Virus record (IMG/VR): IMGVR_UViG_3300007735_000782
Length of the DNA: 64,000 nucleotides
Origin: an uncultured virus (IMG/VR IMGVR_UViG_3300007735_000782)
Taxonomy: Duplodnaviria > Heunggongvirae > Uroviricota > Caudoviricetes
Strand: one strand, 5' to 3'
Positions 22,993-58,346 of this stretch are shown here, in pieces. How positions within the stretch are numbered: position 1 is the stretch's first letter; each line of letters opens with the position of its first letter. The position numbers were made by a program, and so were the translations under genes. The notes beneath the pieces are model-generated. The model had not been told where the DNA came from and did no database searches. It saw only the letters and a list, made by a program, of their open reading frames with translations.

Positions 22993-23469
22993 CTAATCAC
23001 TGCCTTGTTCACGGGTGGAGGCAATTTTTAAGTCTTCAGATAACAAAGCAATTACCCGTCCATCCATTTTTCTTGTTCTCATTAGTTTTTGTAACACACC
23101 AATGGTTTCATCTGAAATTCCGCTATCTTGTTTGATTCGTTTGGTACTAAATGGAAGGAAATCATCCACTGATACTTTTGCCTTCTTCCCGCCTAATGCT
23201 CCTACCACTACGGTGCCAAGTTTGGCCGTAGCAACGCTATTAATATTATATTGTGTAACATCATATTGTTCTAACCATTTCAATGCTTTTATTACATCTT
23301 TCATTTTTTGCTTACCAAAACTATCTGCATCCCATCGGCAATCATTAAAATCTGACGCATTAAGGCGAAAATAAATATCATCCCATTTGGTTAAGTTTTT
23401 TAAAAATTGCCGGGCTTGTTTTTCTAAACGTTCGGCAATGCTTCCTTTGTCCGGCGTGGTGCTTTTTTT
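22993..23469 (-). CDS. Tail assembly chaperone, frameshift extension (gpT-like)
   Basis: -1 frame is open from A AAA AAA (23469-23463) through the ORF listed as 22993..23304. Confidence 0.8.
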   Translation of the reverse strand, partial: KKSTTPDKGSIAERLEKQARQFLKNLTKWDDIYFRLNASDFNDCRWDADSFGKQKMKDVIKALKWLEQYDVTQYNINSVATAKLGTVVVGALGGKKAKVSVDDFLPFSTKRIKQDSGISDETIGVLQKLMRTRKMDGRVIALLSEDLKIASTREQGSD

Positions 23470-23969
23470 GCTTGTCCTGCTTCTTGCGCCTCAGCTTCTT
23501 GCTCGCTAGCAATAAATTCCATACCTTTTACAATCACGCGCCGTCCCATGGCTTTAGTGTCTTCAATGGACCAATCATCAAGGGGCAACCATTCCTCTTT
23601 AATTAGACCTTCGCCTCTGCAACGGATGAATGCAGTTACCATGCGAGCATTACCAGTTTCAACACTACCGCTGCTATTGATCATACCAAGTGTTTCTTCA
23701 GTGAAATCACTTAGTAGTTCCATCTCTGTCATATCAGCACCACCTTGCAACAAGGCAAATGCTTCATCCAATGGAATGTCTTTTGTAGTGGCAATACGTT
23801 TTGCTAATTGCACAGCACGAATAGTTGCCTGGCTTTGAACTTTGCTTAGTTCTTCCTGCTCAATGCCTTCAGCTACCAACCATCCACCATGCTTACGCAA
23901 GCGGATCTTAGGCGTGAGCTCAAAAAACTCAGGCTCTTCGCTTTGGAGAAGAAAACTATACTTGCTCAT
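23424..23969 (-). CDS. Tail assembly chaperone (gpG-like)
   Basis: Position upstream of tape measure; slippery heptamer near 3' end. Confidence 0.8.
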   Translation of the reverse strand: MSKYSFLLQSEEPEFFELTPKIRLRKHGGWLVAEGIEQEELSKVQSQATIRAVQLAKRIATTKDIPLDEAFALLQGGADMTEMELLSDFTEETLGMINSSGSVETGNARMVTAFIRCRGEGLIKEEWLPLDDWSIEDTKAMGRRVIVKGMEFIASEQEAEAQEAGQAKKAPRRTKEALPNV

Positions 23970-24213
23970 GATTTAGCACTGTCAGTACGATGTTGAATCC
24001 CTTCACTCTTTCGCCACCAGAGCGAAATTCTTCAGGGATGTCCACCAAAAAAGAATGATGTTCGTTAGTAATTCTAAGGGTAGTTTCACGAAGCGCAATG
24101 CTGCATAGCACTCCCACTTCAATCTCGTCTCCTTTAATTTTGCAATTGATAGCATGGACTTTTTGGCATTCGCTCCATAAATAATCAATAACCATATAAA
24201 CGCGCAAATTCAA
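23956..24213 (-). CDS. Hypothetical protein
   Basis: Fills gap in tail operon with overlaps; exact start uncertain. Confidence 0.55.
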   Translation of the reverse strand: MNLRVYMVIDYLWSECQKVHAINCKIKGDEIEVGVLCSIALRETTLRITNEHHSFLVDIPEEFRSGGERVKGFNIVLTVLNHEQV

Positions 24214-24640
24214 TGCTTATTCTGGCACTTAAATCAAGCTTTGCTTCGGATTGCTCAAAAAGCAATGGTATCACTAAATCATCTGTCCACTTGCGTGGCA
24301 CACGAGAATGTGGACCTTTGCCTTCGTGAACATAAAAAGCATATTCTTCTCCGCTTGAATTTCTTGCATTCCAATGCCATTTTGCCGATGCGCCAGCAAC
24401 ACTATTTGTTAAAGTAAAGCTATTTTGACCACTTTTAAAAAGAGCCCCAGTGTCGTAAATATCACGAGGATTTCCTGCTGGTGACCTTGCTTTCCTGATA
24501 GTAATAGGTCCTGGATATGGCCATTGCCTATCAATAAATTGCTCACTAAAAAACTTATCATTTAAATCTTCTTCCGCCCAATTATTAAACGCTCTAACAA
24601 GAGCCGCTTCTATAAGTGCTTGGTTTATTAATCTTGCCAT
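24185..24640 (-). CDS. Putative tail completion / neck protein
   Basis: 'RDIYDTG.L..S', 'YA.YVHEG' (HK97 gp10-like pattern). Confidence 0.65.
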   Translation of the reverse strand: MARLINQALIEAALVRAFNNWAEEDLNDKFFSEQFIDRQWPYPGPITIRKARSPAGNPRDIYDTGALFKSGQNSFTLTNSVAGASAKWHWNARNSSGEEYAFYVHEGKGPHSRVPRKWTDDLVIPLLFEQSEAKLDLSARISIEFARLYGY

Positions 24641-24642
24641 TG

Positions 24643-25047
24643 CTATACAGCGTGTTGATACTGAAATACAATGTCAACATCTGGAATTACAATTCGAGCA
24701 TATTGATATTCTCTGTCGCTAGATGGAAAATTACGAACAGTAGCATCAGGGAAATGCCTAATAATGCGATCAATAGCTTCTTCAAGATTTTCGCTAGCTG
24801 GAGCATATTGCGATAACATCACTTCCCATAATTTTGCTTTCCGTACAGTGCCAACCATTGGCCGAGAAGAAATCTCAGGGAACTGGCGTATTACTACTTC
24901 TAATCCTGTTACCTTCCAATCTTTTGGCACACCATATTTACCTTCAACATAAAAAGCTGGCTGTTGCGTATTATTTGGCAGTATGTATGCCCCAATTAAA
25001 TTGTTGACGAGGGCATTAATGGTTTGTCTGAGTTGTAAAATGTTCAT
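24643..25047 (-). CDS. Putative tail terminator
   Basis: Size and position next to tail tube and neck genes. Confidence 0.45.
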   Translation of the reverse strand: MNILQLRQTINALVNNLIGAYILPNNTQQPAFYVEGKYGVPKDWKVTGLEVVIRQFPEISSRPMVGTVRKAKLWEVMLSQYAPASENLEEAIDRIIRHFPDATVRNFPSSDREYQYARIVIPDVDIVFQYQHAV

Positions 25048-25066
25048 GCTCTTATCTTAGCGGAAT

Positions 25067-25091
25067 AAAAAAGCCCCCCTTCCGGGAGGCT
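25067..25091 (-). terminator. Rho-independent terminator after tail tube gene
   Basis: GCCTCCCGGAAGGGGGCTTTTTT on minus strand. Confidence 0.75.
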
Positions 25092-25110
25092 AGAAAATAT
25101 AAAGAAGGGC

Positions 25111-25683
25111 TTAGTTGGGGCCAGTAGGCAGTTTGCTGCTGCCGCTGATTGTGATTTGACCGGCAGCCACAGGGCCACGGCTCATTAAATCAAACGTAAC
25201 TTGTACGAGATTATCAGCAGGATAAGCCTCGCTGTAATTCATTACACAAGCGGCAAACATTGTAGTGTCATAAGTGAAACTACCACCAATAGCCTTGAAC
25301 ACTTGAACAAATACTTCGTAGTTTTTGTCATAACGACTGCGCAGGATAACATCCATGGCTTCATCAAAACCAGTGGATTGAATGGCAGTACCATCCAAGT
25401 CACGTTGGAAGTAAGAAGTAATAGAAGCTTGTGCGCGAGTGGTAACGATCACGCTATCTGCAAAACCGCCACCACCAAGCAGATAGTATTCCTGCTCGGC
25501 GTCATTAATAGCCACAGTAGCGTCAGTAACACCTGCCAGGTAGAACATGGTGGGCGCACCAGAAGCGACAACGGCGCCGCCAACGCTAGATACTGTGGGA
25601 CGTGCGGCTCCTGAAACGGAACCAACGTAGATAATGGTATCTTGGCTCTTGATGAGCTGAGTGGGATGCTGAATGTAGGACAT
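25111..25683 (-). CDS. Major tail tube protein
   Basis: 190 aa, beta-rich, followed by terminator, between neck and chaperone genes. Confidence 0.7.
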   Translation of the reverse strand: MSYIQHPTQLIKSQDTIIYVGSVSGAARPTVSSVGGAVVASGAPTMFYLAGVTDATVAINDAEQEYYLLGGGGFADSVIVTTRAQASITSYFQRDLDGTAIQSTGFDEAMDVILRSRYDKNYEVFVQVFKAIGGSFTYDTTMFAACVMNYSEAYPADNLVQVTFDLMSRGPVAAGQITISGSSKLPTGPN

Positions 25684-25707
25684 TGAAACAAAAGCGAGGG
25701 GAGCGTA

Positions 25708-26097
25708 TTAAGTGTTTAGAACGCTTCCGGCACCAATGGCACGGAAGTAACCATGGATGGGAGCGCCTAAAAGTTGTCTGTAATGAACAGCCATTTCAGT
25801 TGTAGGGAGCAGCTCAAAACGCCCCTCCTGGTTTTCAATGGTGGCTTGCGCCACTTCTCCAGGGGGCACTCCCGAAAACGCTAATGGACCAACTAATCTG
25901 CCCTTCATGTAAATGGCAGTTTCATCAGCACCAAGGCGTTGCTCATAACGCGGATTACGGCTTTGTTTCAATGTGGCGTAGTAAACTCCACTTGTTGTGA
26001 GAGCTACGAGATTGCCAGTATTTGCATCTACGGCGTACCCGCTAGTCACGGCAAAAACCAAAGTGGCATTTGCTAGTGGTGGTGCGGGATTAGTCAT
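25708..26097 (-). CDS. Putative head closure protein
   Basis: Position after adaptor; size. Confidence 0.45.
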   Translation of the reverse strand: MTNPAPPLANATLVFAVTSGYAVDANTGNLVALTTSGVYYATLKQSRNPRYEQRLGADETAIYMKGRLVGPLAFSGVPPGEVAQATIENQEGRFELLPTTEMAVHYRQLLGAPIHGYFRAIGAGSVLNT

Positions 26098-26414
26098 TAG
26101 ACCACAAAGCCGATTAAAGATCCATTGTTAGAAGCTGTTTCGGAGAGTCGCTTGAATTCCTGTCCGTAAAGTGTGGCATCTAAACCATTTCCGTAAACTT
26201 TCCCATCGGTGGCTCCAATTTGAACCCCCATCTGAGCAAGTTGAATAGAAATAATGTGAGCAGCAAGGAAACGAACAGCACGATCTGTTTGATCTCCAAA
26301 AATGTCTGCTCCAACATCAGCACTAGCACTTTCAATGGCTCCATTCACAATCCCCGATGGATGAGGCGTGAATTCAGGAAACCGTTGAATAAAATCAACA
26401 GTAGTAACAGCCAT
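26097..26414 (-). CDS. Head-tail adaptor (DUF4054-like)
   Basis: 'F..RFPEF', 'LAAH', 'T.YGQEF..L'. Confidence 0.8.
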   Translation of the reverse strand: MAVTTVDFIQRFPEFTPHPSGIVNGAIESASADVGADIFGDQTDRAVRFLAAHIISIQLAQMGVQIGATDGKVYGNGLDATLYGQEFKRLSETASNNGSLIGFVV

Positions 26415-26416
26415 GA

Positions 26417-26803
26417 TTAGGCAGCTCCTCTTTTGAGTAAATCCAAGCGTTTGCTGATGGCATTACGAATTCGTATCCGACCTTCCACTTTTTTCCAATC
26501 AGCAAGCTGAGTTTCATCGTGAATAAGTTCAGTGATACGAAGAGCCTCAAGTAGAGGTACGTTTGTAAGAGTTTCAACATCTTGTGGAATTTTTTCCACA
26601 GTCACCTGTTCTCTCACTTCCTCGATAGCGCCAATAGACATAAGCCGTTTAACCACGCGGTTTTCACAAGCTTGTTTCCATTGATTATCAGGAACATCCT
26701 GATTGAGGCCAGGGGTAAGTTGAATCATGCCCCCTTCTGTAATGATGCCGAAGCCACCTTCACGGGGTGGGTTTTCAAGCTCAGGGCGATAAGCAATTAG
26801 CAT
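26417..26803 (-). CDS. Hypothetical head-associated protein
   Basis: Follows capsid gene; 'L.PG.N.....W' and C-terminal 'E.R..IR.AI..RL' helix. Confidence 0.55.
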   Translation of the reverse strand: MLIAYRPELENPPREGGFGIITEGGMIQLTPGLNQDVPDNQWKQACENRVVKRLMSIGAIEEVREQVTVEKIPQDVETLTNVPLLEALRITELIHDETQLADWKKVEGRIRIRNAISKRLDLLKRGAA

Positions 26804-26857
26804 TTTGAAATGTTCGGTAGAACTGCTGATAGCATAACGCCCCTCCCTTGTTTATGA

Positions 26858-27772
26858 TCAAGCAGAAGCTTGAACGTAAATGGCACTCTTGGGGAAGTAC
26901 AAAGCCACACCACCCACGCGAGCATGAGCAGGAACAATGAACTCAAGTCCACGCTGTTGAGGTGGGAACAACTCAAGAGGTTGTGGAATGTGCAGTTGCA
27001 CTTTCTCAGGATCGCGCTTATAAACAACCATGCGATTGGTGGTTAATACGCTATTGCCTTCATCCAACTGGTTGATAGGTTCAACATTGCGGATGTAAGG
27101 ATTGGTGCGAAGGAAATACTCAAGCACAGTAACGTCCGAAGAGTCGGAATTACGAGTGGTGCTTACTACGTTGTAGTCTTCGTAAGCCATCAAGATGGTA
27201 TCGGGCTGCTCCTTCATCTTGGAAGCGTTGATGATGGCAGTAACGCCATAGTTCAACAATTCCAGCATGTCTTGAGCAGTACCACTAGCAGTAGTGCCAG
27301 TAAACCACTTGTTCGCAGTAACAACATCAACAGTTGCATTATTAAAGAAGCCAGCGAGACCAACAGAAGGTTCGCCGAACATGGCAACAGCTTCTACTTT
27401 CTCTTCATAAGCACGACGCACTGCTTGGGCGCGGCGTTGCTCAAGAGCAATATTAGCCATTTGAGCAGCACGGAGTTCCTGCACGGTATAACCGAAGCTA
27501 CCACCGAAAGAACGAATGTTGATGCTCTTTTCCACTTGGCTAACGTCTGCACGGGGCAAATCATCAGCAGCATCTGCAATCAGTTTGAACTCACCAGTGG
27601 AGTCCATGATGCGGAAAGTGAAAGTTTGTGCGCCAGGACCAGCTTCGCTAGTTACAGGAAGAATGGTTGAATATTTGATGTCGGCATAAACCGTTTCAAA
27701 TACTTGGGGGCGGATAAATTCAAGTTGGCGCTCAAGAAAGAGGCCAGCTTCGTCCATACGAAATTCAGACAT
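26858..27772 (-). CDS. Major capsid protein (DUF2184-like, HK97 fold)
   Basis: 'FLERQLE.I', 'ADDLP', 'Y...EL.AA', 'G.FNN', 'GGV..Y.P'; start taken at MSEF after GGAGG. Confidence 0.9.
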   Translation of the reverse strand: MSEFRMDEAGLFLERQLEFIRPQVFETVYADIKYSTILPVTSEAGPGAQTFTFRIMDSTGEFKLIADAADDLPRADVSQVEKSINIRSFGGSFGYTVQELRAAQMANIALEQRRAQAVRRAYEEKVEAVAMFGEPSVGLAGFFNNATVDVVTANKWFTGTTASGTAQDMLELLNYGVTAIINASKMKEQPDTILMAYEDYNVVSTTRNSDSSDVTVLEYFLRTNPYIRNVEPINQLDEGNSVLTTNRMVVYKRDPEKVQLHIPQPLELFPPQQRGLEFIVPAHARVGGVALYFPKSAIYVQASA

Positions 27773-27786
27773 TGGAGGGCCTCCTA

Positions 27787-28344
27787 TCAAGAGTCAGCGG
27801 TAAGGGTGAACGAAGGACCGTTCAATTCAACAATCGCCAGGCCGGAGCCGGTAACAGAAGAAAGGTAACGAGCATTCGCCAGTAAAGCAGTTTTGCCACT
27901 AAGGGCAGCAGAGCGGAATTGACCAGCGTATTGAACACCAGTTGCAGTATGGATAACGCGCACAGCAGTGGCAGGAGTCACTGAACCATGAACATAAACA
28001 GCAACGGCGCCTGCGTTGGCAACATTCATCACTTGCTCGTCTTTCACGCCAGGACGACTGTTGGTATCAAGAGCAGTTTCGTCCACATAAGTGAGAACGT
28101 TTACGCCTTGAACAATATCAGTTGCAGCGGAAATAATTTTAGCGGAATTAGCAACAGTACCACCAGAGTTGTATACAACAACTTTACCGAAAGCCAAAAC
28201 GGCATTGGTTTCATTGATATAAGTGCCAATGGTGTTGTCGCGGATGTCGGACAGTTGGCCTTCCAGCAATGCGGTGTGCTGCAGAGCATAAGTCTGTTGC
28301 ACTCCACCTGCGGAACCACTAGCCCCGGAAAAAGTAACGGCCAT
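27787..28344 (-). CDS. Head decoration / cement protein
   Basis: Between scaffold/protease and capsid; 'FG..V', 'V...G.V.V' pattern. Confidence 0.75.
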   Translation of the reverse strand: MAVTFSGASGSAGGVQQTYALQHTALLEGQLSDIRDNTIGTYINETNAVLAFGKVVVYNSGGTVANSAKIISAATDIVQGVNVLTYVDETALDTNSRPGVKDEQVMNVANAGAVAVYVHGSVTPATAVRVIHTATGVQYAGQFRSAALSGKTALLANARYLSSVTGSGLAIVELNGPSFTLTADS

Positions 28345-28347
28345 GGA

Positions 28348-29544
28348 TCAGCGCTCCTTAGAGACAGAGAGAGGGGATTTCCAAGCATTCTGCAATCTGT
28401 CCATATAGGAAGAAGGTGCAGACATTGGAGACGCAATAGAAGCAACAGCTTTACGCAGTTCTTCTGTAGCAGCAGAATCACCACGAGGGGATTCTGTCAA
28501 AGTGTCGAACATAGCAGTGATATAATCATCAGAACGAGCTGATAAATCAACATCACCACGAACGGCTTTGATGGAGGTTTCCATTATTTCACGAGCTGAA
28601 AGGCCAGTAAAATCAAAAGCACTATCAAGGGAAGGACGTGCTTTGTCGATGAGCGCAACACGCTCTTCAACAAGACCATCGACGTTCACTTTTTGTGCTT
28701 CGGAAAGCTCAGCCTTAAGACTTTCTACTTCCTCTGCAAGTGCATCGGCCCGCCCTTCAGCAGAGTCGGTTTTACCTTTCATCTCCTTTTGCATGGCATC
28801 CATTTCTTCCTTCATTTTGGAAGCTTCAGCCATCATGCCATCGTATTTTTTCTTCATGTCCTCGTAGGACATCTTGGCGTCTTCCCGTTCTTTAGTGATT
28901 GCTAGAGCTACGCTCTCGGTCACCTCAAACTCGGCGCCATCAAAATTGACTTTTGCAGTCATTGATGAATCCTCAGTAAAAGTAAATAAAGAAGGATCGG
29001 CAGCATCTAGACGATCTAGATGAAGCTTCACTTGCGGGCCAGCGCGGCCCCGACGAACAACAGCAATGTGATTTCCGCTGATTTCCTTTTGGATGCCATC
29101 GTAATTTTCACCGCTATCAGTTACACCAGGAATCGCCTCATAATTGACGCGATAGCCAGCGCTGACTTCTTTTGCATCACCACGCATAATACGTTCAATG
29201 GCATCTTTATCAGTGATTGTCATAACGGCACGAACGAAACCGTTGTCATAAACCACTTCAGTGCCACTAAATCCAATTTGATAATCCTTTGTATTAGAAC
29301 TATCTAAGAGGACAGATGGATGTTCAAGAGTGATCGCTTTGCCCGCAAACGAGGCCAAGCTAACAGGAGATGCCACTTCTGATTCCGGGCGATATTCGCG
29401 ACGAATAGAACCATCCGCATCGGTGTACTGTTGCACACCAGTGCGAGCGATGGTTGCCCAAGCACGAAGATAACCTTCAGGGGTCAGTTCATACTTGTCA
29501 ATCGGCGCTACATCGTAACGGAAGCAAGTGTCACTCATACCCAT
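28348..29544 (-). CDS. Prohead protease/scaffold (DUF2213 family)
   Basis: 'TPEGYL....IARTG.Q.Y', 'ITLEHP', 'EVSAGY', 'NHIAVV..GRAG'; coiled-coil C-terminal scaffold. Confidence 0.9.
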   Translation of the reverse strand: MGMSDTCFRYDVAPIDKYELTPEGYLRAWATIARTGVQQYTDADGSIRREYRPESEVASPVSLASFAGKAITLEHPSVLLDSSNTKDYQIGFSGTEVVYDNGFVRAVMTITDKDAIERIMRGDAKEVSAGYRVNYEAIPGVTDSGENYDGIQKEISGNHIAVVRRGRAGPQVKLHLDRLDAADPSLFTFTEDSSMTAKVNFDGAEFEVTESVALAITKEREDAKMSYEDMKKKYDGMMAEASKMKEEMDAMQKEMKGKTDSAEGRADALAEEVESLKAELSEAQKVNVDGLVEERVALIDKARPSLDSAFDFTGLSAREIMETSIKAVRGDVDLSARSDDYITAMFDTLTESPRGDSAATEELRKAVASIASPMSAPSSYMDRLQNAWKSPLSVSKER

Positions 29545-29599
29545 ACTCTATCAAATAATTTAACGCAAGATAGACTAACTTAGGATATATTGCCTAAGA

Positions 29600-29896
29600 A
29601 TGCAGCACATTCAACTTCATCGCCTCACCACTCGCTTTAAGGCTCCAAACGTCACTATTCAAGAAAGCAGGCAAGTTATTGGTCAACGCATGAAAGAAGC
29701 AAGATTGAATTGCGGTTTGTCGCAACAGGATATAGCGCAGATTTTGCACTGCGATCAAACTACTGTTTCACGAATGGAACGCGGAGCAATATCTCCTGAT
29801 TGCGCTCAAATTCGCACACTTAGCTCAGTGTTTCAACTTTCTATTTTGTATCTACTTGGCTATCCCACTTTCGTGGTATCTGCTGTTAGCAATTAA
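29600..29896 (+). CDS. XRE-family helix-turn-helix regulator
   Basis: 'IGQRMKEARL..GLSQ.DIA..L......VSRMERG...P'. Confidence 0.85.
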   Translation: MQHIQLHRLTTRFKAPNVTIQESRQVIGQRMKEARLNCGLSQQDIAQILHCDQTTVSRMERGAISPDCAQIRTLSSVFQLSILYLLGYPTFVVSAVSN

Positions 29897-30201
29897 TCAT
29901 CATCTTCGTCGTCACGCAAATCCGCTAGTTGATTCTCAATGCCTTCCATTACATATGCCTTGGCTATTGCTTCAGCTTCAAAAACCAAAAACTTAGTTTC
30001 TTCAAACTGCTCATCAGGCTTGTCGTAAGAATTCTTAACGAAAATATGCGTTTCATCAAAACGACCATTTCTGAAATGCTGTTCCTCGACCAACCGCCAA
30101 TGAGAGGTATTGCGGTGTTCATTGCATGAAAGAATAGCCAGCGCCTTCATGGTGCCAATGCCTTCATCTTCTTCCTCGATGACGCGGACAAATTCGCTCA
30201 T
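29893..30201 (-). CDS. Hypothetical acidic protein
   Basis: ATGA-coupled to upstream ORF. Confidence 0.65.
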   Translation of the reverse strand: MSEFVRVIEEEDEGIGTMKALAILSCNEHRNTSHWRLVEEQHFRNGRFDETHIFVKNSYDKPDEQFEETKFLVFEAEAIAKAYVMEGIENQLADLRDDEDDD

Positions 30202-30557
30202 GATTTTGGTTGACGACTTTCCACCATTTTAATCACACGATTTGCCCATGACCTGCCAGCATCGCCGCCCCATAATTGCCAGGCTATGTAACCAGCATCA
30301 TCTTCACCACCACTTTTATTTTTTTCATGACGCGAAAAAAATGCTGCCATTCGTTTGATAGTAGCAAAACTTATGCCACCACCACCAGCTAGATCACCAG
30401 CCCTCGCCACTCCACTGCCAATGCCTTCTTTCCCGGCCTCCTGCGTGGTTAATCCGCCTTTGCCATACTTCTTGCGTAGTTCTAAGCCACGACGCGCTGC
30501 GGCCCTTACGGACGATGGTGGGGAGAAGCTTTCGGCATCTCCCCTTAATCCTTTCCC
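30198..30557 (-). CDS. Frameshift-accessed C-terminal domain of the 30545..30775 product
   Basis: -1 frame open from G GGA AAG: GLRGDAESFSPPSSVRAAARRGLELRKKYGKGG...VARAGDLA...RMAAFFSRH...WQLWGGDAG. Confidence 0.75.
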   Translation of the reverse strand, partial: GKGLRGDAESFSPPSSVRAAARRGLELRKKYGKGGLTTQEAGKEGIGSGVARAGDLAGGGGISFATIKRMAAFFSRHEKNKSGGEDDAGYIAWQLWGGDAGRSWANRVIKMVESRQPKS

Positions 30558-30775
30558 TCTTCTTCTTCCTCTCCTGCTATTTCTTTAAAAAAGCCCATGT
30601 AATATTCATCACTCATATCTTTCTTGGGCTTGCGAGTCATGCCAGCTTCAGAGAGAGCAATGGCAAGCGCTTGCTGAGGACTCTTAACTGGCTCACCAGT
30701 ACTGCTTTTTAATTTGCCACTCTTAAATTCACGCATCACCAGGGCGACTTTAGCTTGCTTTTCTTTTTTAGTCAT
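30545..30775 (-). CDS. Small basic protein (DUF6496-like)
   Basis: 'KV..VM.EFK.GKL.SS.G..VK...QA.AIALSEAG'. Confidence 0.8.
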   Translation of the reverse strand: MTKKEKQAKVALVMREFKSGKLKSSTGEPVKSPQQALAIALSEAGMTRKPKKDMSDEYYMGFFKEIAGEEEEEGKD

Positions 30776-31428
30776 TACTGTAGATTTCTTTCTATAACTA
30801 ACATTAAATCATCCCACCGCCCGTTGACGTGTCTTCGGTCAATTCTCTCAGAAGTGTACCCTGGAGGAAGCGCATCTTCCAACACTTTAAACCAGCTTAA
30901 CTCTTGAATATCTTCAATAACTGCAACGCCTGTTTTGGAAAGCAATGGTAAATACAGATTAAGAAAACTACATTGGCTTTCCAGGGAGTGAGGGCCATCG
31001 TCAATTATCAAATCAATACCATCAAGGACAAGGGTTTTTATTTTATTTATTGTTTGCGCGGAATAGGCATCCTGTATAAGAAATGCATGACGATCTTGTT
31101 TCAAATTGTTCTTAATTTTATCATGCACACAATCCATTACATCTATACCGATAACAAAAGCATTGGGACAAAAATCATGCCACAACAACATTGATCCACC
31201 ATGCTGCACTCCAATTTCCAATATGCAACTTTTTTGTTTTGTTTTTATTCTCGAAAGCAAAAATTCGTAAATAGGGCCATATGAATGGCTGTCACTAGGG
31301 GAGCCAATATTTTCACATTTTTGCTTATCAGTGCCACCTGGATTTTGCCAATAACCAATTTGGTGTTTTTTAAAAATTTGCTCAACATTAGGACACAGCG
31401 AAAGATCTTCTAAAATAGTTTGTTGCAT
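30775..31428 (-). CDS. Class I SAM-dependent methyltransferase (Methyltransf_24-like)
   Basis: 'TDK', 'HSY...YE', 'LEIGV..GGS', 'DLIIDDG.H', 'IEDI'. Confidence 0.85.
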   Translation of the reverse strand: MQQTILEDLSLCPNVEQIFKKHQIGYWQNPGGTDKQKCENIGSPSDSHSYGPIYEFLLSRIKTKQKSCILEIGVQHGGSMLLWHDFCPNAFVIGIDVMDCVHDKIKNNLKQDRHAFLIQDAYSAQTINKIKTLVLDGIDLIIDDGPHSLESQCSFLNLYLPLLSKTGVAVIEDIQELSWFKVLEDALPPGYTSERIDRRHVNGRWDDLMLVIERNLQ

Positions 31429-31455
31429 GATTTTAGGAATAAAAATAAGATGAAA

Positions 31456-32103
31456 TTAATGACGCAATTGATTTACTTGCGCCTCCAGTAAGTGCAAATA
31501 AGATGGCCCCTTGGAACTTTGGAAAAGATGAAATACTCTACCATTGCCGTATGTTGTGCCAATTCCAAAAGTTCCTAGATCAGCCAGCGGCCAAGAAGGT
31601 CCATCTGTTGAATGTCTTTCAGGAAATAATAGTCCAACATCCAACCCTTCGTTCAAGCATGCCATGGTAATGCTTTGAGCTGTATCCATCTCACCATTAG
31701 CTATTAAACTTGGCCTGCCAATTTCATTCCATAACGAACGATTAGCCACCATAAATGCAGGAGCTGCATAGGGAATATTACGCAATGGCAAATGATTAGC
31801 GCATTGCGCCACCCCTAAAACAGTGCCGTTTTTCTTGACTGCTGCTTGTGCAAAATCAATAATAGACAAACACAAAACAATGCAATCAATATCAATAAAG
31901 CCAATTAAATCTTCTTTACGATCATCAAATAATTGCTCCATCCATCGCCCATGAGCAGCATGAGGACTAATCCCTTCGCTATTTAATCCTGCAATAGAAA
32001 CGGAATGATAGCAGACATTTAAACCAACTAAGTTACATGCTTCTTGATGAAGATCGATGATGCGAGAATCAATATTGTCGCAGTAAAAAGAATGGAAAAG
32101 CAT
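31456..32103 (-). CDS. Putative GT-A fold glycosyltransferase
   Basis: 'FIDIDC' DxD motif; glycosylation cluster. Confidence 0.6.
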   Translation of the reverse strand: MLFHSFYCDNIDSRIIDLHQEACNLVGLNVCYHSVSIAGLNSEGISPHAAHGRWMEQLFDDRKEDLIGFIDIDCIVLCLSIIDFAQAAVKKNGTVLGVAQCANHLPLRNIPYAAPAFMVANRSLWNEIGRPSLIANGEMDTAQSITMACLNEGLDVGLLFPERHSTDGPSWPLADLGTFGIGTTYGNGRVFHLFQSSKGPSYLHLLEAQVNQLRH

Positions 32104-32711
32104 TAGCGAATTCGAGAGAAAAAATTACCATGAAAAGTCAAAGGTGGCGCTGTGTAACTACGTAACATAGGCTTATCCTTTTGAAACCATTCAATTAGAT
32201 GATGTTGACATTGATGCATGCTTTCCATTTGCACTAACATTTGCAGATCAAGAGGCATGAAAATAGTTTCAAAGATATCCAGCAACTTTTCCATGCCTTC
32301 TTTGGTCACCAAATAACCGTCTGTGCCGCATACACCTCCCCATGTAAGCCCATTGTGATTACGAAAACTTCTATTGTTAAAAAATACTAAATCAGCGTCA
32401 TCCGGTACTGGCATAGCAATAGTTGATCTCAAAGTGGTGTCATCTTCAAGAACAGCAATTTGTTTAAACCCTTGAGCTAAAGCATGTTTCCATAGTTCAA
32501 TGGAGGAAAGCGTAAGTGCTAATTCACCAGTCAACTTCAATGCATCACTACCACCACGCTCGTCCCAAATCACACGGCGTTCTGTTTTAGCTTCCATGTC
32601 TTCTCTGCTCACCTTTCTTCCGTCAATGGCATTCCACCATACAAATTGTTGACCTATTTCCATTAAGCGTCTCTTGAAGGTTTCTCTTCTTTCGTCTCCT
32701 TCTATGCTCAT
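32103..32711 (-). CDS. Glycosyltransferase family 25 domain (probably reached by -1 frameshift from upstream GT4)
   Basis: 'RR..F', 'AIDG', 'GE.AL.LS...LW', 'VLEDD', 'T.GY.V...G..KLL', 'P.D'. Confidence 0.8.
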   Translation of the reverse strand: MSIEGDERRETFKRRLMEIGQQFVWWNAIDGRKVSREDMEAKTERRVIWDERGGSDALKLTGELALTLSSIELWKHALAQGFKQIAVLEDDTTLRSTIAMPVPDDADLVFFNNRSFRNHNGLTWGGVCGTDGYLVTKEGMEKLLDIFETIFMPLDLQMLVQMESMHQCQHHLIEWFQKDKPMLRSYTAPPLTFHGNFFSRIR

Positions 32712-32788
32712 GCAATAAACAGGCCCTTCAGATAAATCAATAACAGTTGATGAAACGCGAGGGAATAGTGCATTTACACTATCCCCTT

Positions 32789-33994
32789 CTACTTTTTTCC
32801 AAAACCTTCTCCAGCCTTTGGCTTTTCAGTCAGAGTGCGACTAATGATGCTTTCAAGTTGCTCAACAATGGTGGTCCATTTGTATTTATCTTGAACTAAT
32901 TGATCTCGGCACCATTGTCCAGCCTTGATTAGTTCGCCTCGATTGTGGTAGTAATGATCAAGATGTTTTGCTAAATCGTGAGGAGATATTTGACCTCGCT
33001 CTAGCCCGTAATTCCTATCAGTTTCCCAGCTTTCAACATTAATGCGTGGTAAATCATAAAAAATTTCACGCAAGCTTGTGTGATCAGGAACTAATTGTGC
33101 AACGCCAGCAGCAGCATGCTCAAAACTTACCAATCCCCAGCCCTCTCCTGAACAAGTGTTAATGCCAATATCACAAGCATTCATCACTTCATTAAGTTTT
33201 TCAATGGGCAAGCAACGCATTGTATCAAAATCTTTACTGGTAAGAATTAACTTGCCAGTGGCATCATATCCATAGTCACGAGCCACACGTTTAAACAATG
33301 GAACAAGATCCCATCCTTGATCTTTGGTTCCCATGTTGAGCCATAAACGAGCATCAGGTTTGTCTAATGCAAATTCAATAAAACCTTTAATAGTTAAATC
33401 AATACGTTTACGCGGTTGATTTCTATTGCCATTAAATACTACAAATAAATTATCTTCAATCCCTAAAGATTTACGGCACTCAGCTTTATCCATGGGAAAG
33501 AAATGCGAGTGGTTGATGCCATGGGGAATAATGTCACAAGGCAACTCGCATCCAGCCTTACGAATTTCTTCTAAGCCAAATTCCGTATAAGTACCCATTC
33601 CATCCCACTCGTGGCATTGATCAAATACTTCAGGGTAAAAACCATAGCTATCCACAGGGAAATAACCATACCATTTAAAACCAAATTGTTCTTTGTAGGG
33701 GCCAGCTTTCGCCCACAAAGTTTTCAACACCCAAATATCATTGATAGCAAAAACAAGATCAGGCTTAATAGTGGCAATTAGTTCAGGAAGGCGATGGCTT
33801 CCAAATGGATCATGACCTCCTGCCATTGCTGGATACATTTTGCAATATTGTTGCATTTCCGTGGGATCACCAAACCAATTGGTGGCCATCACATGAATCT
33901 CATGCTTTTTAGCTAGCTCAGGAAGCAGACTTTCAGCCACTCGGCCAAATCCAGTTTGAACGGATGCATCACCACAGTAGAGAATACGAGCCAC
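32789..33994 (-). CDS. Glycosyltransferase family 4 (GT-B)
   Basis: 'TGFGRV', 'IPHG', 'NRNQPRKRID', 'GEGWGL..FE.AA.G'. Confidence 0.9.
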   Translation of the reverse strand: MARILYCGDASVQTGFGRVAESLLPELAKKHEIHVMATNWFGDPTEMQQYCKMYPAMAGGHDPFGSHRLPELIATIKPDLVFAINDIWVLKTLWAKAGPYKEQFGFKWYGYFPVDSYGFYPEVFDQCHEWDGMGTYTEFGLEEIRKAGCELPCDIIPHGINHSHFFPMDKAECRKSLGIEDNLFVVFNGNRNQPRKRIDLTIKGFIEFALDKPDARLWLNMGTKDQGWDLVPLFKRVARDYGYDATGKLILTSKDFDTMRCLPIEKLNEVMNACDIGINTCSGEGWGLVSFEHAAAGVAQLVPDHTSLREIFYDLPRINVESWETDRNYGLERGQISPHDLAKHLDHYYHNRGELIKAGQWCRDQLVQDKYKWTTIVEQLESIISRTLTEKPKAGEGFGKK

Positions 33995-37326: not shown

Positions 37327-38016
37327 ATGATCAAAGATCCAAATCGCTTTTATGTCTACGCTTATTTGAGAAGTAAAGACTCGGAAAACGGCAAGAAAAA
37401 TACGCCCTATTACATAGGCAAAGGATGTGGAGATCGTGCCACTTCTAAATTGCGAACGATTCCAAAGCCTTCAGACCCTGCTCTTATTATTTACGTTGAA
37501 GAAGGATTAACAGAAGAAGAAGCGTTTTCTTTGGAAAAATACTACATTGCTCTCTACGGACGCATTGACAATGGCACTGGCAGCTTGCGCAATTTAAGTG
37601 ACGGGGGTGACGGGCCATCTGGGGCTATTCACTCAGAAGAGACCAAGAGAAAAAGAGCAGAAGCTGGGCGGGGGCGAAGACACAGCAAGGAATCCGCTCT
37701 AAAAATTTCCGAGGCTCAGTTGGCTGAGAAAAATCACATGTGGGGTAAAGTTGTGTCCGAGGAAACTCGGCTTAAATTATCTAAGGCGAATAAGGGTCTT
37801 AAAAGGTCCAAGGAAACCCGTCAAAGAATTGCAGCAGGAAAATGCCGCTATTTGTGCGAATTAATTGACCCTGCCGGTCTAGTGCATGTAGTTCAAAATT
37901 TATATCAATTTTGTTTGAAAAATGGATTGCATCGCAAATTAATGAGTAACTTGGTTAACGGCAAAAGAAGTTCCTATAAAGGATGGACTGTTCGAAAAAT
38001 TGAGTTTTTGCGCTGA
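37327..38016 (+). CDS. GIY-YIG-like homing endonuclease with NUMOD3 repeats
   Basis: 'YVYAY...YYIGKG...R', 'LRN..DGG.G', repeats 'HSEETKRK', 'SEETRLKLS'; coupled to terminase. Confidence 0.85.
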   Translation: MIKDPNRFYVYAYLRSKDSENGKKNTPYYIGKGCGDRATSKLRTIPKPSDPALIIYVEEGLTEEEAFSLEKYYIALYGRIDNGTGSLRNLSDGGDGPSGAIHSEETKRKRAEAGRGRRHSKESALKISEAQLAEKNHMWGKVVSEETRLKLSKANKGLKRSKETRQRIAAGKCRYLCELIDPAGLVHVVQNLYQFCLKNGLHRKLMSNLVNGKRSSYKGWTVRKIEFLR

Positions 38017-39395
38017 TGGCACGACTGTCTTGCGGCGATTTTGCCAAGCACGTATTAAATACTCCGCTGTGGCCTAAACAACAAGAAATATTAAATGAAT
38101 ATTTTGGTGGTGGTAAAAGCCATGCAGTATGGGCGCTTGGCCGAAGAGCAGGAAAAACACTCATGGCTTCTATTGCAGCAGCATATGCTTGCTTTATCCT
38201 AGAAAGCTATTACAAGAATAAAGTACGGAAAAATGAAAAGTGGTATATTGTTACTATTGCAAATGATCAGCAGCAATCAAAGATTTCTTTAAATAACATT
38301 CGTCAATTAATACTAGATAGCCCTCTTGGTGATGAAATCACAAGAGAAACTGCAACAGAAATTCAAATCAGTAATGGTTGTGTATTCCAAGCAATTCCAG
38401 CTTCTGCTCGTGCTTCTCGCGGTAAAGCTGTAGTAATGTGTATATTCGATGAGCTAGCCTTCCAGTTGGAAGGAGATGCCAATAGAGGCGCAAAAGCAAT
38501 ATACGACGCGCTGTCACCTTCTATCGCTCAATTTGGCAGCCATGGCCGAATACTAGAGCTATCTTCACCTTGGCTCACCGATGGATTATTTTATTCCCAT
38601 TTTAGAGAAGCTGAAAGTGGTGAATTTCCATTCATGCAAGCTAAAAATATTCCCACCTGGGAAATAAATCCTAATTTACCATGGGGATGTCCTTTTTTAG
38701 TTGCAGAGCAAAAAAGAGATGAAGATAAATTTTGGACAGAATATGGCGCTAAATTCAGAGGAAATAAATCAGCACTATTAGCTTCTGAAATTGTAGATGC
38801 TGCAATTAATAAAAATAGAAACGTATTGTTGCCAATAAGGGAAGTGATGGGCAAATACGTGCTAGCACTTGACCCTGCTCGTGGTGGTGTGGGACGAGAT
38901 GAATACATTGCTTGTATTGTGCATTTTGAACGTGCCACGTTAGTGGTGGATAAGTTCCATACGTTTATGGCTGATTTTGAAATCAATGGTAAAAAAGAAG
39001 TTAGTATTCAAGCAGTTGAAGATTGGATACGGGAACATCATAAGATTTATCAATTTGAAAGTATTGTACTTGACCAATTTAATAGTTCAGCTACCATTCA
39101 AAGCTTGTCGGGTGATTTCCCTATTAGAGAACTTACTTGGTCTGTTAGCACCAAAATGAAAGCATTTAGTAAAATGAAAGAATTGTTTAATGCTGGTTTA
39201 GTAGACATCTATCCGCATGAGCAAGCTATTAGACAGCTTAAAAATTTAAATGTTGTTTACAGACAAAGTGGTCAATGGTCAGTAACTGGTGGTAAAGAAG
39301 TAGGAGTGGATGACTTTTGTTTTGCTTTAGCTGCTGCAATCCTAGAAGCATCAAAAGAAGACGATTTAAATTGGATGGAAGGTTTACTTCGCTGA
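38016..39395 (+). CDS. terL: Terminase large subunit
   Basis: Walker A 'GRRAGKT', Walker B 'CIFDE', 'LSSP', RNase H-like 'ALDPA', 'DD...ALA'. Confidence 0.92.
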   Translation: MARLSCGDFAKHVLNTPLWPKQQEILNEYFGGGKSHAVWALGRRAGKTLMASIAAAYACFILESYYKNKVRKNEKWYIVTIANDQQQSKISLNNIRQLILDSPLGDEITRETATEIQISNGCVFQAIPASARASRGKAVVMCIFDELAFQLEGDANRGAKAIYDALSPSIAQFGSHGRILELSSPWLTDGLFYSHFREAESGEFPFMQAKNIPTWEINPNLPWGCPFLVAEQKRDEDKFWTEYGAKFRGNKSALLASEIVDAAINKNRNVLLPIREVMGKYVLALDPARGGVGRDEYIACIVHFERATLVVDKFHTFMADFEINGKKEVSIQAVEDWIREHHKIYQFESIVLDQFNSSATIQSLSGDFPIRELTWSVSTKMKAFSKMKELFNAGLVDIYPHEQAIRQLKNLNVVYRQSGQWSVTGGKEVGVDDFCFALAAAILEASKEDDLNWMEGLLR

Positions 39396-40241: not shown

Positions 40242-40982
40242 TCATGCCGCACCATAGCTTGGAAGATTTACGTTAGAACTTTCAAAAAAACTAATCATCC
40301 TGGAACGACGAGAATCCGCCATATCAGGAGCCTTGCCTTCCCAAAACAAACGCCTTGAACGTTCCATCCATGCATCCTTATCTAACCATTTGTCTTCACT
40401 AGCGCCTAAATCATCAAATAACCATGCCACTGTTGCTTTACGTAATTTATCAAGGCTTGCAGAATCTTTTTCGTTTAATTCTTTAGCAATAAGGCCATGC
40501 ACTCCACAATGCACTTGCTCATCTCTTGATATATCGGCTGATACTGTTCTCATGCCAATATTACCATTAAAACGAAAAAATGGTAATGCAACAAAGAAAA
40601 TAGAACGTTCAACAATTGCCACTTTATGGATGGGGTGGGCAGGATGCTCCATCCACACTTTAAGAATGTTCTTCACTTCACTTTCAGCTTTTGCATTAGT
40701 GCCATAAGCATCAGCTACATAATTTAAAGCCTCATCATGACGTTCTTCGTCTTTTTGATTAGAACGTAAAGCTTCGATGATGCCAGGCGTAGAGGGCAGA
40801 TCACGCTGTAAGCCTTGCTCCAGCAAATCCTTTACAGGCAGTTCAATATGCCTTAAAGCAAGTGCTTTGAATAAAGTGGCTTCTGCTCCTTCTTTAACTG
40901 GTGAATTATCAACGGGCGTAGCTTGCCATGCACGTTTCTTTGAAAGCATTTGCAGATAGGGACTGCGAACAGTGGTAGTCAT
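40242..40982 (-). CDS. nrdB: Ribonucleotide reductase small (ferritin-like) subunit, cyanophage type
   Basis: Two E-x-x-H motifs ('DEERH', 'DEQVH'); adjacent to RNR large subunit. Confidence 0.8.
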   Translation of the reverse strand: MTTTVRSPYLQMLSKKRAWQATPVDNSPVKEGAEATLFKALALRHIELPVKDLLEQGLQRDLPSTPGIIEALRSNQKDEERHDEALNYVADAYGTNAKAESEVKNILKVWMEHPAHPIHKVAIVERSIFFVALPFFRFNGNIGMRTVSADISRDEQVHCGVHGLIAKELNEKDSASLDKLRKATVAWLFDDLGASEDKWLDKDAWMERSRRLFWEGKAPDMADSRRSRMISFFESSNVNLPSYGAA

Positions 40983-41025
40983 TTGTTTCTTGCGAAAGAA
41001 TAGTAATTAACAATGGAAAAGAAAA

Positions 41026-54760: not shown

Positions 54761-54841
54761 AATTAGAGATAAGCTAACTGTAATTATAAAGCCATTCATT
54801 AAAAAAGGCCCCAAGGGCCTTTGTAATTCTATTTTTTTGTT

Positions 54842-56767: not shown

Positions 56768-56906
56768 GCTGCAAGGAATAGCACTCACCATCATGCCAGC
56801 CATGGCTGCATTGCGCAAGGTAAATGGGCATAAGCAATTCTTATGGAAACAATGCTTGCCATTACAAGCTTCTAGGCTATTGTGGGCATGAACTTTGCGG
56901 CCTTCT

Positions 56907-57143
56907 ATGCCAAAAAGAATTTATGAAGGTGGCAAACGCCGTCATCATTTCACCATTTCTGATCAAGCATTTGCCCATTTGTCAGCAATTGCTGCAGATG
57001 GCACATTGTCTCGTTCGGAAGCGTTAGAGCGTCTCATACGTTCCACGCCATTATTTGAAGGCAGTGCCACGCTTGCTGATGGTGCCTGGCCTTTTGTTAT
57101 TGATCACTCATCCCCTTTGCCATTATCCCATGAACCTAGCTGA
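56907..57143 (+). CDS. Ribbon-helix-helix DNA-binding protein
   Basis: 'RHHFTISD.A...L..IA....LSRSEALERLIR'; divergent from primase. Confidence 0.7.
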   Translation: MPKRIYEGGKRRHHFTISDQAFAHLSAIAADGTLSRSEALERLIRSTPLFEGSATLADGAWPFVIDHSSPLPLSHEPS

Positions 57144-57381
57144 ATTAATTCAAGCCTTACAGCAAGCCGTTGCATTAGTGCCTGCTGATTCGGAGGTGGT
57201 CACTAGCTTTGAACAGGCCACGCTGGAAGAGGGCTTTTCGTGGGAACACACGGAAGGAATTTCCGATGTTCGCATTTGTAATGATTGGCCCCTGCCAGGT
57301 GACAGCATGCTGGTAGCTGAACATGAAAAGCCATTTAAGGTGATAATTTTCTATGACATCCATAGCAATTTAAATCCATGA
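57130..57381 (+). CDS. Hypothetical protein
   Basis: MNLAELIQAL start; coupled to next gene. Confidence 0.55.
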   Translation: MNLAELIQALQQAVALVPADSEVVTSFEQATLEEGFSWEHTEGISDVRICNDWPLPGDSMLVAEHEKPFKVIIFYDIHSNLNP

Positions 57382-58346
57382 CCTCTTCTTATTTTCTTTA
57401 CGATCCTAAATTTATGCAATCCCCCGCTGCTTTTGCTATGGCCGAACGTATGAATGGCATCTTCTCTCCCTTAGAGATTTTGCCTGAAGCTTTCACTAAA
57501 GCTTATGAACTTCCCATTGGTGAACATGTAGAGAAAAACTACAAAGGGCTTTCTTATCTTTCATGGCCTTTTGCTTTTCGCTACCTCAAAGAACAATTCC
57601 CTACATTATTTGTAGCTTTTGAAGAAAGCACTGTGGGGTGGCCAGTATTTGGTCAAACTGGATGTTGGCTATTGCGTCCATACTTAACTGATGGATGTCG
57701 TCGCACACCAGCTTTAGTGTTTCCCATTATGGACAACAAACATAATGCAGTGAAAGAACTTGATGCTCGTCAAGTAAGCGACAACATTCAAAGGGCTAGC
57801 GTTAAATGTATTGCTACTTTCACTGGTTTAGGGCTCAAGCTGTATTCCGGTGAAGATATTCCTATTAATGATGAAAAAGAACCATCCAAACATGAAAAAG
57901 AACCATCTAAACTCCCGCTCCAACAGGAAGCAACGAAGCCTGCTGCGAGGGCAGGCACGAAAGCAGCGCCAGTTGCGGAGCATGTTACTGCTCCTGGAGC
58001 AACAGGGCTTTCTGCGGCCAGTAGCACCAGTGAGTTCAATGGCAAAGAAGCGCTTCTTAGCTTCTGTCGAGCCAATCCCCTCGGCTATGGGGAGGAGCGC
58101 AGGAGCATGATTGCTGGTAAAACAGCGCTGGAAGCCCTTGGCCTTTCTAAAGGCGATGATATTAAAGATGCGGCAATGTTTGCCAATGTAGTAACCACCA
58201 TGGTCACTGCATGGATCAAGGAAGAAGGGCTAAAGCTTACCAAAGCTCAAATGACTAGTGAATTGGACATTTTAAGAAAAGCTTGTGAAGTGTCAACGGA
58301 ACAAGCAATCAAGGAGGTGGAGGTTTTTGTGCAGGGAAAGAAATAA
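57378..58346 (+). CDS. Single-strand annealing protein (DUF1071/Sak3-like)
   Basis: 'LSYLSW..A', 'PIMD...NA', 'IQR..VK.IA...GLGL.LY.GEDIP'. Confidence 0.85.
   Translation: MTSSYFLYDPKFMQSPAAFAMAERMNGIFSPLEILPEAFTKAYELPIGEHVEKNYKGLSYLSWPFAFRYLKEQFPTLFVAFEESTVGWPVFGQTGCWLLRPYLTDGCRRTPALVFPIMDNKHNAVKELDARQVSDNIQRASVKCIATFTGLGLKLYSGEDIPINDEKEPSKHEKEPSKLPLQQEATKPAARAGTKAAPVAEHVTAPGATGLSAASSTSEFNGKEALLSFCRANPLGYGEERRSMIAGKTALEALGLSKGDDIKDAAMFANVVTTMVTAWIKEEGLKLTKAQMTSELDILRKACEVSTEQAIKEVEVFVQGKK

Follow-up and report, generated by a model that had tools for sequence, protein, structure and literature searches.

Putative programmed −1 ribosomal frameshift cassettes at four gene ends in a tailed-phage genome from fresh water

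Gene-end heptamers and the genes that carry them

The stretch of DNA analysed here, which we call the window, comprises 64,000 nucleotides (nt) of an uncultured virus (IMG/VR record IMGVR_UViG_3300007735_000782) and is a segment of a tailed-phage genome with 43% G+C and zero N. Our subject is a set of four of its genes, encoding a tail assembly chaperone, a DUF6496 protein, a GT4-type glycosyltransferase and a Sak-type single-strand annealing protein (SSAP), each with a heptamer of the form X_XXY_YYZ close to its end, on which ribosomes could slip into the −1 frame. An earlier note on this DNA had claimed that the heptamers are in frame at the four gene ends, and that each −1 frame stays open to a downstream open reading frame (ORF) or to an ATGA overlap. 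Both claims held. Each of the four heptamers is in X_XXY_YYZ register with its ORF (offset mod 3 = 2), and the −1 frames are open for 157, 118, 230 and 31 codons at sites 1–4.

Site 1 (A_AAA_AAA, 23463..23469, minus strand) lies in frame in the tail assembly chaperone gene. The zero frame, taken from the ORF list, encodes a G-like short form of 181 amino acids (aa; 23424..23969, −), and the −1 frame adds a T-like extension (22993..23469, −; 157 codons, open to 22993), which would give a trans-frame product of 325 aa. This chaperone pair is directly upstream of the gene for the 1752-aa tape measure protein (17711-22969, −; PF20155). No Pfam or PHROG family matched either chaperone ORF at E values up to 10.

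At site 2 (G_GGA_AAG, 30551..30557, −) the heptamer stands one codon before the stop of a gene whose 76-aa product (30545..30775, −) matches DUF6496 (PF20106, 33.2 bits with a cut-off of 24; E 7e-8). A hairpin with a stem of seven base pairs (bp) and an 11-nt loop (30520..30544, −) starts 6 nt past the heptamer, and the −1 frame ORF (30198..30557, −; 118 codons) encodes a helical domain matching phrog_2859, here termed domain X. The predicted trans-frame product has 192 aa.

Site 3 (A_AAA_AAG, 32792..32798, −) is found directly before the stop of the GT4-type glycosyltransferase gene (401 aa; 32789..33994, −), whose product matches the phrog_2170 glycosyltransferase family (E 1.3e-53) and Pfam GT-B families below their cut-offs only. 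A hairpin with a 12-bp stem (32760..32787, −) starts 4 nt past the heptamer. The −1 frame (32103..32798, −; 230 codons) encodes a 29-codon linker followed by a GT25 domain (PF01755, 56.8 bits against a cut-off of 24), and slippage would yield a GT4–GT25 protein of 630 aa. The GT25 frame has an ATG at 32711, and the 77-nt ‘intergenic’ gap between GT4 and GT25 codes in the −1 frame; with the linker included, the GT25 match reaches back to profile position 4 and so begins three residues upstream of this ATG.

Site 4 (G_GGA_AAG, 58334..58340, plus strand) lies one codon before the stop of the SSAP gene (322 aa; 57378..58346, +), the product of which matches PF06378 over residues 43-180 (62.2 bits against a cut-off of 22.3) and phrog_8492. 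Eight nucleotides past the heptamer begins a stem-loop (58349..58383, +) composed of a 5-bp lower stem, a 3x3 internal loop and a 7-bp upper stem. The −1 frame encodes a 31-aa tail (58334..58432, +) with its stop inside the ATGA of the next gene, and the long form would have 351 aa. A PD-(D/E)XK exonuclease is encoded two genes downstream.

The earlier note had further reported a 3′ hairpin at three of the sites, and folding agreed with this: the three are sites 2, 3 and 4 (−22.3, −17.7 and −20.6 kcal/mol; z −3.9, −3.8 and −3.7). As for the heptamers, a greedy ORF set of the window (95 ORFs, 19,905 codons) contains 90 of the X_XXY_YYZ type in frame, 12 of them within the final 60 nt of an ORF. 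Since they are common in ORFs and a dozen are gene-terminal, a gene-end heptamer alone is weak evidence, and the comparison with relatives is the real test. The efficient X_XXA_AAG class has five members in the same set; three of the five, each at most two codons from a stop, are sites 2–4. As a control we followed T_TTA_AAT at 57369-57375 (+), two codons before the stop of a 108-aa ORF upstream of the SSAP gene, which is kept in only 3 of 37 related loci, each of at least 93% identity. The ATGA of this 108-aa ORF overlaps the SSAP start, and the −1 frame from T_TTA_AAT at 57369 enters the SSAP gene.

Further heptamers were seen elsewhere. From T_TTT_TTC at 32118-32124 (−), near the GT25 stop, the −1 frame passes the zero-frame stop into the next ORF via an ATGA overlap; this heptamer looks non-conserved, because a relative encodes FSS where the window has FFS. 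T_TTA_AAT at 39365-39371 (+) is another gene-end heptamer with a −1 frame reaching beyond the zero-frame stop. We attribute the long −1 frames at 32124 and 39365 to ATGA-type gene overlaps. The remaining in-frame A_AAA_AAG heptamers, at 5730 and 8540 (−), lie ~35-70 codons into large genes (629 and 694 aa), and their −1 frames stop after 15-16 codons.

Conservation of heptamers, −1 frames and stem-loops

When an 11-kb query was compared with 50,697 phage records, the sole relative at the nucleotide level was Synechococcus phage S-CBS4 (74% identity over 8% of the query), a cultured phage infecting Synechococcus sp. CB0101 that has its gene order in common with the window and carries sites 1, 2 and 4. 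Conservation of heptamer and hairpin in homologous loci had been proposed as one check on the frameshift sites. The heptamers are kept at all four, in 75/75, 62/78, 17/17 and 43/43 relatives at sites 1–4, the other 16 loci at site 2 being in-frame fusions; the hairpins are conserved at sites 2–4, with covariation at sites 2 and 4. These alignments show that the heptamers are maintained at the nucleotide level to a degree that the protein does not demand, as signals and not by chance.

For site 1 we collected 79 related viral-contig loci, four of which are unreadable as they start inside the gene or at a contig end. A_AAA_AAA is present at the homologous position in all 75 readable loci, with the zero-frame stop 10 or 14 codons later, and the T-like −1 frame peptide is conserved at 52–98% identity in the 79 loci. 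S-CBS4 has the same A_AAA_AAA arrangement in its chaperone gene. Judged by its sequence, site 1 is the textbook G/GT case, the only one of the four that was already known.

At site 2, the comparison used 80 loci selected among 275 relatives of the −1 frame ORF, of which 78 could be read. A slippery heptamer occupies the site in 62 of these (AAAAAAG in 40, GGGAAAG in 21 and CCCAAAG in one), and the zero-frame stop follows after 0 codons in six loci, after one codon in 55 and after five codons in one. Amino-acid conservation begins at the heptamer (RGDAE.F.PP); the −1 frame peptide reads KKGLRGDAEGFAPP in S-CBS4 and KGLRGDAESFSPP in the window. The stem is paired in 98.9% of cells, compared with 68–84% when the partner is slid, and one of its pairs alternates between AU (23 sequences) and CG (11). 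The 5′ arm of this hairpin (AAGGGGAG; 30506-30538, −) resembles a ribosome-binding site and is followed by an ATG that opens a zero-frame ORF of 10 codons only; the ATG is probably incidental, because most relatives have GAC or GAT there. In the public S-CBS4 annotation, gp019 starts at a GTG within the conserved −1 frame region (L001 5218-5526).

In each of the 16 other loci a single in-frame ORF, 182-186 aa long except for one truncated by its contig end, joins an N-terminal DUF6496 to a C-terminal domain X. At the site 2 position they carry the non-slippery sequences TTTATGG, TTCATGG, TTCCAAG, TTTCAAG or GAAAAAG, and the hairpin is degraded, with a mean energy of −3.2 kcal/mol compared with −11.3 kcal/mol in the slippery loci. 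A natural single-ORF DUF6496-X query matched 764 database proteins at E<1e-5. The best 120 of the 764 are 138-207 aa long; 118 of them cover 92–100% of the query and two shorter ones 71–76%. Given these natural in-frame versions and the 764 relatives, the long DUF6496-X protein is therefore expected to be a normal and widespread product, which most of the clade can make only by frameshifting.

In distant phages domain X forms the N-terminus of a ~260-aa protein that has its own Met and whose gene is flanked by that for the minor head protein on one side and by scaffold or protease genes on the other. An AlphaFold model of a natural in-frame DUF6496-X protein (L005 ORF, 67 relatives) is all helical with a pLDDT of 84.4. 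A Foldseek search of the PDB with this model gave no hits at E<=0.001, and the best match in a wide VIA-align search had a Z of 5.5 over 66 residues, with no convincing structural neighbour. The window's portal protein (PF06381; 34698-36773, −) has a ~190-aa C-terminal extension with a DUF5872 match; domain X shows no similarity to that region (BLASTP E 16).

Of 41 loci with the GT4 3′ end, 37 have no in-frame heptamer near the stop and two have a different one (GGGTTTT). In those 39 the downstream gene is a different one, of ~228-240 aa, and starts at an ATG of its own that is no more than ~13 nt away from the stop. The frameshift type of GT4–GT25 was found in viral and metagenome scans on 10 contigs belonging to five lineages (49–99% identity), and each contig combines A_AAA_AAG with a stop in the zero frame 0, 1 or 3 codons on and with a stem-loop downstream. 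Folding was done on one representative per frameshift-type lineage and on fused-type sequences; hairpins comparable to that of the window (−15 to −25.6 kcal/mol) were obtained for four other frameshift-type and three fused-type sequences, and those of L243 and L245 are weaker. Synonymous changes account for 7/15, 11/19 and 6/16 of the codon changes in the linker when read in the −1 frame, compared with at most 4/16 in the other frames.

In-frame versions of the long product also exist at site 3. Six protein clusters of 629-632 aa, identified by searching longer proteins, are in-frame fusions of GT1 and GT25 domains (GT4–GT25) and cover 100% of the linker and GT25. At the junction these clusters read ..GEGFGKKHEGVGAEVLFPG..IDLSDG..VYCIS.., which can be aligned with the window's linker in the −1 frame, and K1, K2, F12, P13, D21 and C29 of the linker are invariant between the window and the single-ORF fusions. 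All seven fused-type contigs with a readable junction keep A_AAA_AAG in frame at GFGKK. In three of the fused loci, L203 (~1500-1560) and L239 and L240 (~1000-1060), a hairpin of 9-10 bp and −20 to −25.6 kcal/mol follows the heptamer at a distance of 6 nt, and the −1 frame stops after one codon. A slip in the fused-type genes would thus truncate the protein to GT4 alone, a polarity opposite to that in the window. We infer that both arrangements may give two isoforms with opposite defaults.

The site 4 relatives number 43, namely 38 viral-contig loci (47–98% identity), four genome-collection loci and S-CBS4. An X_XXA_AAG heptamer stands 0-1 codons before the SSAP stop in every one; in the viral contigs it is G_GGA_AAG in 33 and A_AAA_AAG in five, in frame. 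The residue preceding Gly/Lys varies (Q, A, E, V, K or S), while the third base of its codon is invariably slippery. A −1 frame tail of 23-44 aa is conserved in all 43 but one, which is cut by a contig end; its consensus is KAxDLAAARLARAFAGxIxxNxDGSPLxEL, and it often terminates in the start codon of the next gene. Entropies at codon positions 1, 2 and 3 are 0.55, 0.44 and 1.06 in the −1 frame of the tail, compared with 0.62, 0.54 and 1.33 in the SSAP body, and the synonymous share of codon differences in the tail is 43% in the −1 frame as against 15% and 6% in the other frames. The stem is paired in 81.4% of cells (32–49% when slid), and 6 of its 12 pairs have changed on both sides. In some cases such a double change leaves the pairing intact but replaces amino acids (Arg to Ser with Arg to Leu). 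About 113 of the best 120 SSAP clusters end in G-K-X.

Upstream of site 4, a purine-rich stretch resembling a Shine–Dalgarno (SD) sequence, GGAGGTGGAGG in 58300-58333 (+), ends 10 nt before the heptamer, which is the spacing of the upstream stimulator in dnaX. Relatives keep AAGGAG- or GGGAG-like sequence farther upstream only, and the stretch in the window codes for K-E/G-V-E. The SSAP tail is unannotated in the public S-CBS4 record (L290 2434-2530). For gp018/gp019 and gp079 of that phage, annotation as frameshifted joins is probably warranted.

Ribosomal slippage and the alternatives to it

We consider it very likely that programmed −1 ribosomal frameshifting is genuine at all four sites and that its cassettes have been maintained in evolution. 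Some of the ribosomes would slip back one base on X_XXA_AAG, or on A_AAA_AAA in the chaperone gene, and at sites 2–4 the ribosome would be paused by an RNA stem-loop starting 4-8 nt downstream. Shifted ribosomes would then pass the nearby zero-frame stop and make a less abundant long product beside the short one: a GT-like chaperone of 325 aa beside the G-like form of 181 aa, DUF6496 plus domain X (192 aa) beside DUF6496 alone (76 aa), a two-domain GT4–GT25 protein (630 aa) beside GT4 alone (401 aa), and an SSAP of 351 aa with the 31-aa tail beside that of 322 aa. The suggestion of the earlier note that −1 recoding at four gene ends gives short and long isoforms is supported by the kept heptamers, the nearby stops and the conserved −1 frames. 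Sequence comparison shows the signals themselves, the coding nature of the −1 frames and, at sites 2 and 3, in-frame versions of the long product. That the ribosome slips and not RNA polymerase, in what ratios the products are made and what roles the long forms have are matters that we infer.

Several points weigh against this interpretation. The support for it comes from sequence comparison, and the trans-frame products are predicted. Site 1 has no downstream structure (−6.1 kcal/mol, z 0.2); tail chaperone frameshift sites often lack RNA structure. Site 3 rests on few lineages (the 10 frameshift-type contigs from five of them), and the GT25 ATG, present in the window and in one other lineage, could allow some independent initiation. 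At site 4, two lineages lack the main hairpin and keep the peptide pattern, and an in-frame fused homolog of SSAP and tail was not found, the best 120 SSAP clusters all being of at most 324 aa. Finally, A_AAA_AAA and A_AAA_AAG could in principle also suit polymerase slippage.

The downstream frames at sites 2–4 might instead be separate genes, with their own (maybe non-canonical) initiation or with termination–reinitiation, and the heptamers incidental Gly-Lys or Lys-Lys codons. Such a gene could start at the ATG at 32711 in the GT25 frame of the window, or at the scattered TTG or GTG codons that lie upstream in the domain X frame in 20 of the 62 slippery site 2 loci; in the window, the first ATG, GTG or TTG of this frame is a GTG at 30410. 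Gene callers also place ORFs of 30-63 aa over the SSAP tail, and gene-end heptamers are common generally, with 12 in the window. However, none of the 62 loci has an upstream ATG in the domain X frame, and 42 have no ATG, GTG or TTG before the conserved domain. In three frameshift-type lineages ATC or ATT replaces the GT25 ATG of the window, which is therefore probably an internal Met. Moreover, peptide conservation begins at the heptamer, and the wobble base before it is fixed across different residues; three heptamers belonging to a single mechanistic class substitute for one another at one position; and there are homologs fused in frame whose length is that predicted. With no start codon conserved, independent initiation is unlikely, and we regard separate genes as an improbable explanation of these frames.

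It also seems quite improbable that only sites 1 and 2 are programmed, with sites 3 and 4 slipping at a low level or without function and their hairpins acting as terminators or mRNA-stabilising elements. The intergenic position of the site 4 stem, with U-rich sequence after it, would fit this explanation, as would the small number of site 3 lineages and the lack of a fused SSAP among the clusters seen. Against it, the SSAP tail peptide is conserved even where the hairpin has changed, the heptamer at site 4 is kept in every one of its 43 relatives, and the site 3 linker aligns with that of the single-ORF fusions.

Slippage of RNA polymerase on A-runs would produce mRNAs with one extra base, from which long forms could be translated with no slip by the ribosome. 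Sites 1 and 3, as runs of seven and six A, would be the candidates. Polymerase slippage usually needs homopolymer runs of ~9, and those at hand are shorter. At sites 2 and 4, G_GGA_AAG and C_CCA_AAG, with three A's only, replace A_AAA_AAG at homologous positions, and it is ribosomal frameshifting that has conserved hairpins 4-8 nt away as a feature. The interchange of these three heptamers, the 4-8 nt spacers and the covarying stems argue for ribosomal −1 slippage on the lysine codon AAG and against slippage of the polymerase, which we rate as highly improbable. Slippage on long A or T runs is known and is reviewed in PMC5009743.

The earlier note had named in-frame homologs combined with indels in reads as one finding that would speak against recoding. 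Fusions do exist at sites 2 and 3. Over 23300-33000, contigs assembled independently from four runs, which belong to four studies, bridge sites 1–3 with 0 gaps and zero letters inserted or omitted; this assembly comparison covered 23300-33000 and site 4 is outside it, but site 4 is common to 43 independent sequences. That sites 2–4 are frameshift mutations or assembly errors splitting once-fused genes, the downstream fragments now decaying, is suggested by those fusions and yet hardly credible, given that the same frame structure recurs in the four independent assemblies and persists across lineages down to 47–49% identity, that the downstream frames are under purifying selection, that the heptamer is kept where stops differ in position and kind, and that neither mixed run lengths at the heptamers nor, in relatives, an accumulation of stops in the downstream frames was seen.

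Comparison with known systems and genome context

Frameshifting as such and the chaperone case are already known. The lambda G/GT tail chaperone −1 frameshift reportedly takes place on G_GGA_AAG, and is said to have been described by Levin, Hendrix and Casjens in 1993 and by Xu, Hendrix and Duda in 2004. Site 1 corresponds to this case, and sites 2 and 4 use the heptamer of lambda; in contrast to G/GT, sites 2–4 lie in head-module, glycosyltransferase and recombination genes and have downstream stem-loops, which site 1 does not. In Escherichia coli dnaX, the −1 frameshift that gives tau and gamma takes place on A_AAA_AAG, which has an SD-like element upstream of it and a stem-loop downstream. 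The window sites are similar in heptamer class and in having a hairpin a few nucleotides downstream, and a shift in the fused-type GT4–GT25 relatives would give a shorter product, like gamma, whereas at all four window sites it would give the longer one. On the sequence evidence, then, the mechanism is the canonical −1 frameshifting of the dnaX and G/GT kind. The G/GT frameshift is also cited in PMC5009743.

Phage frameshifts beyond the tail chaperones are described in PMC10885494 for the T7 and A2 capsid genes, Cro, lysins, methyltransferases, polymerases, RusA/RuvC and MuF/VIP2 fusions. As far as the accessible part of that paper goes, these cases resemble the window sites in being single-gene recoding that adds a C-terminal domain, none of the genes is an annealing protein, glycosyltransferase or DUF6496 gene, and no phage with four sites is described. 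The accessible part of PMC12846349 describes the chaperone site only. Our literature search, with most subscription journals outside it, found no report of frameshifting in an annealing protein, glycosyltransferase or DUF6496 gene; it returned no mention of DUF6496 and nothing relevant on frameshifting in S-CBS4.

Textbook recoding in tailed phages amounts to about one chaperone site, and the window would have four conserved cassettes, in tail assembly, the head module, glycosylation and recombination. We found no report of an annealing protein with a frameshift-made tail or of a two-domain glycosyltransferase assembled by frameshifting, and sites 4 and 3 would be the first of each. Current annotation overlooks sites 2–4; in S-CBS4 the products appear as individual hypothetical proteins, and there is no annotation for the SSAP tail. 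Since S-CBS4 is in culture with three of the four sites, the prediction is directly testable. The natural frameshifted and fused alleles are, in addition, a ready experiment on the origin, persistence and loss of frameshift signals.

We also asked what the SSAP tail may do, by comparison with the C-terminus of DnaX tau. We read 29 tau C-termini, all of a single phylum; an alignment of the 21 regarded as the long form has the consensus DPxVxxxLxxFxGxxxD. In the tau register the SSAP tail has D, F at +10, G or A at +12 and hydrophobic residues at +14 and +15. An hhalign comparison of tail and tau aligned 12 columns in that register with P 0.0097 and a probability of 4% only (P 0.4 for the control set). 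A search with the tail profile among 1.84 billion proteins gave 26 hits, none of them DnaX-like; it returned only repetitive giant proteins and ORFs of 30-63 aa, the latter probably the SSAP tail itself as called by gene finders. Scanning genome-collection contigs with the tail alignment revealed no cellular look-alike. Mimicry of the C-terminus of host DnaX tau by the SSAP tail, as the register might suggest, is conceivable and on balance unlikely.

More doubtful still is a combined proposal, in which the four cassettes would form one translational control circuit, the tail would mimic tau and tether the replicative polymerase to annealed recombination intermediates, and the polarity of GT4–GT25 would have flipped. 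In such a circuit, sites 2–4 would share the lysine-tRNA-dependent AAG slip codon and site 1 would slip on AAA lysine codons, and the translational state of the host would set together the long/short ratios of the chaperone, the head-module protein, the bifunctional glycosyltransferase and the recombinase. The flip would mean that frameshifting makes the long form of GT4–GT25 in some lineages and the short form in others.

The structural genes of the window are on the minus strand at 17.7-36.8 kb and include those for the tape measure protein, the chaperone pair, the major capsid protein (PF09950), a cement protein, a DUF2213 protease, the DUF6496 protein, a methyltransferase, the GT25 and GT4 glycosyltransferases and the portal protein. 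A replication/recombination module at 54.8-62.8 kb encodes an AAA_25 ATPase, the Sak-type SSAP, the PD-(D/E)XK exonuclease, a dCTP deaminase and ThyX. Scans of the window yielded no Rfam families at gathering score and no tRNA genes.

The lineage of the window is widespread in fresh water. At least 59% of sampled words from the 9.7-kb stretch 23300-33000 are present in 20 public runs from 15 studies, which comprise lake, river, drinking-water and other freshwater samples. Among the 24 runs listed for this stretch, none was of RNA. In the genome collection, the SSAP alignment matched contigs (L251-L254) in four assembly bins, labelled Gammaproteobacteria, Methylacidiphilales (two bins) and Verrucomicrobia. 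It may be that the hosts of the freshwater members are not cyanobacteria, or else that the bins are contaminated by phage contigs; the bin labels are no guide to the host, because binning of phage contigs is unreliable.

Lastly, the ribonucleotide reductase ORFs cover small parts of their profiles only (for the large subunit, positions 1-99 of 523 in the Pfam profile), and the reductase genes could be split or divergent. The window also has NUMOD3 and HNH homing-endonuclease genes; together with the reductase ORFs, they concern 40242-42483 (−), 37327-38016 (+) and 62821-63300 (−).

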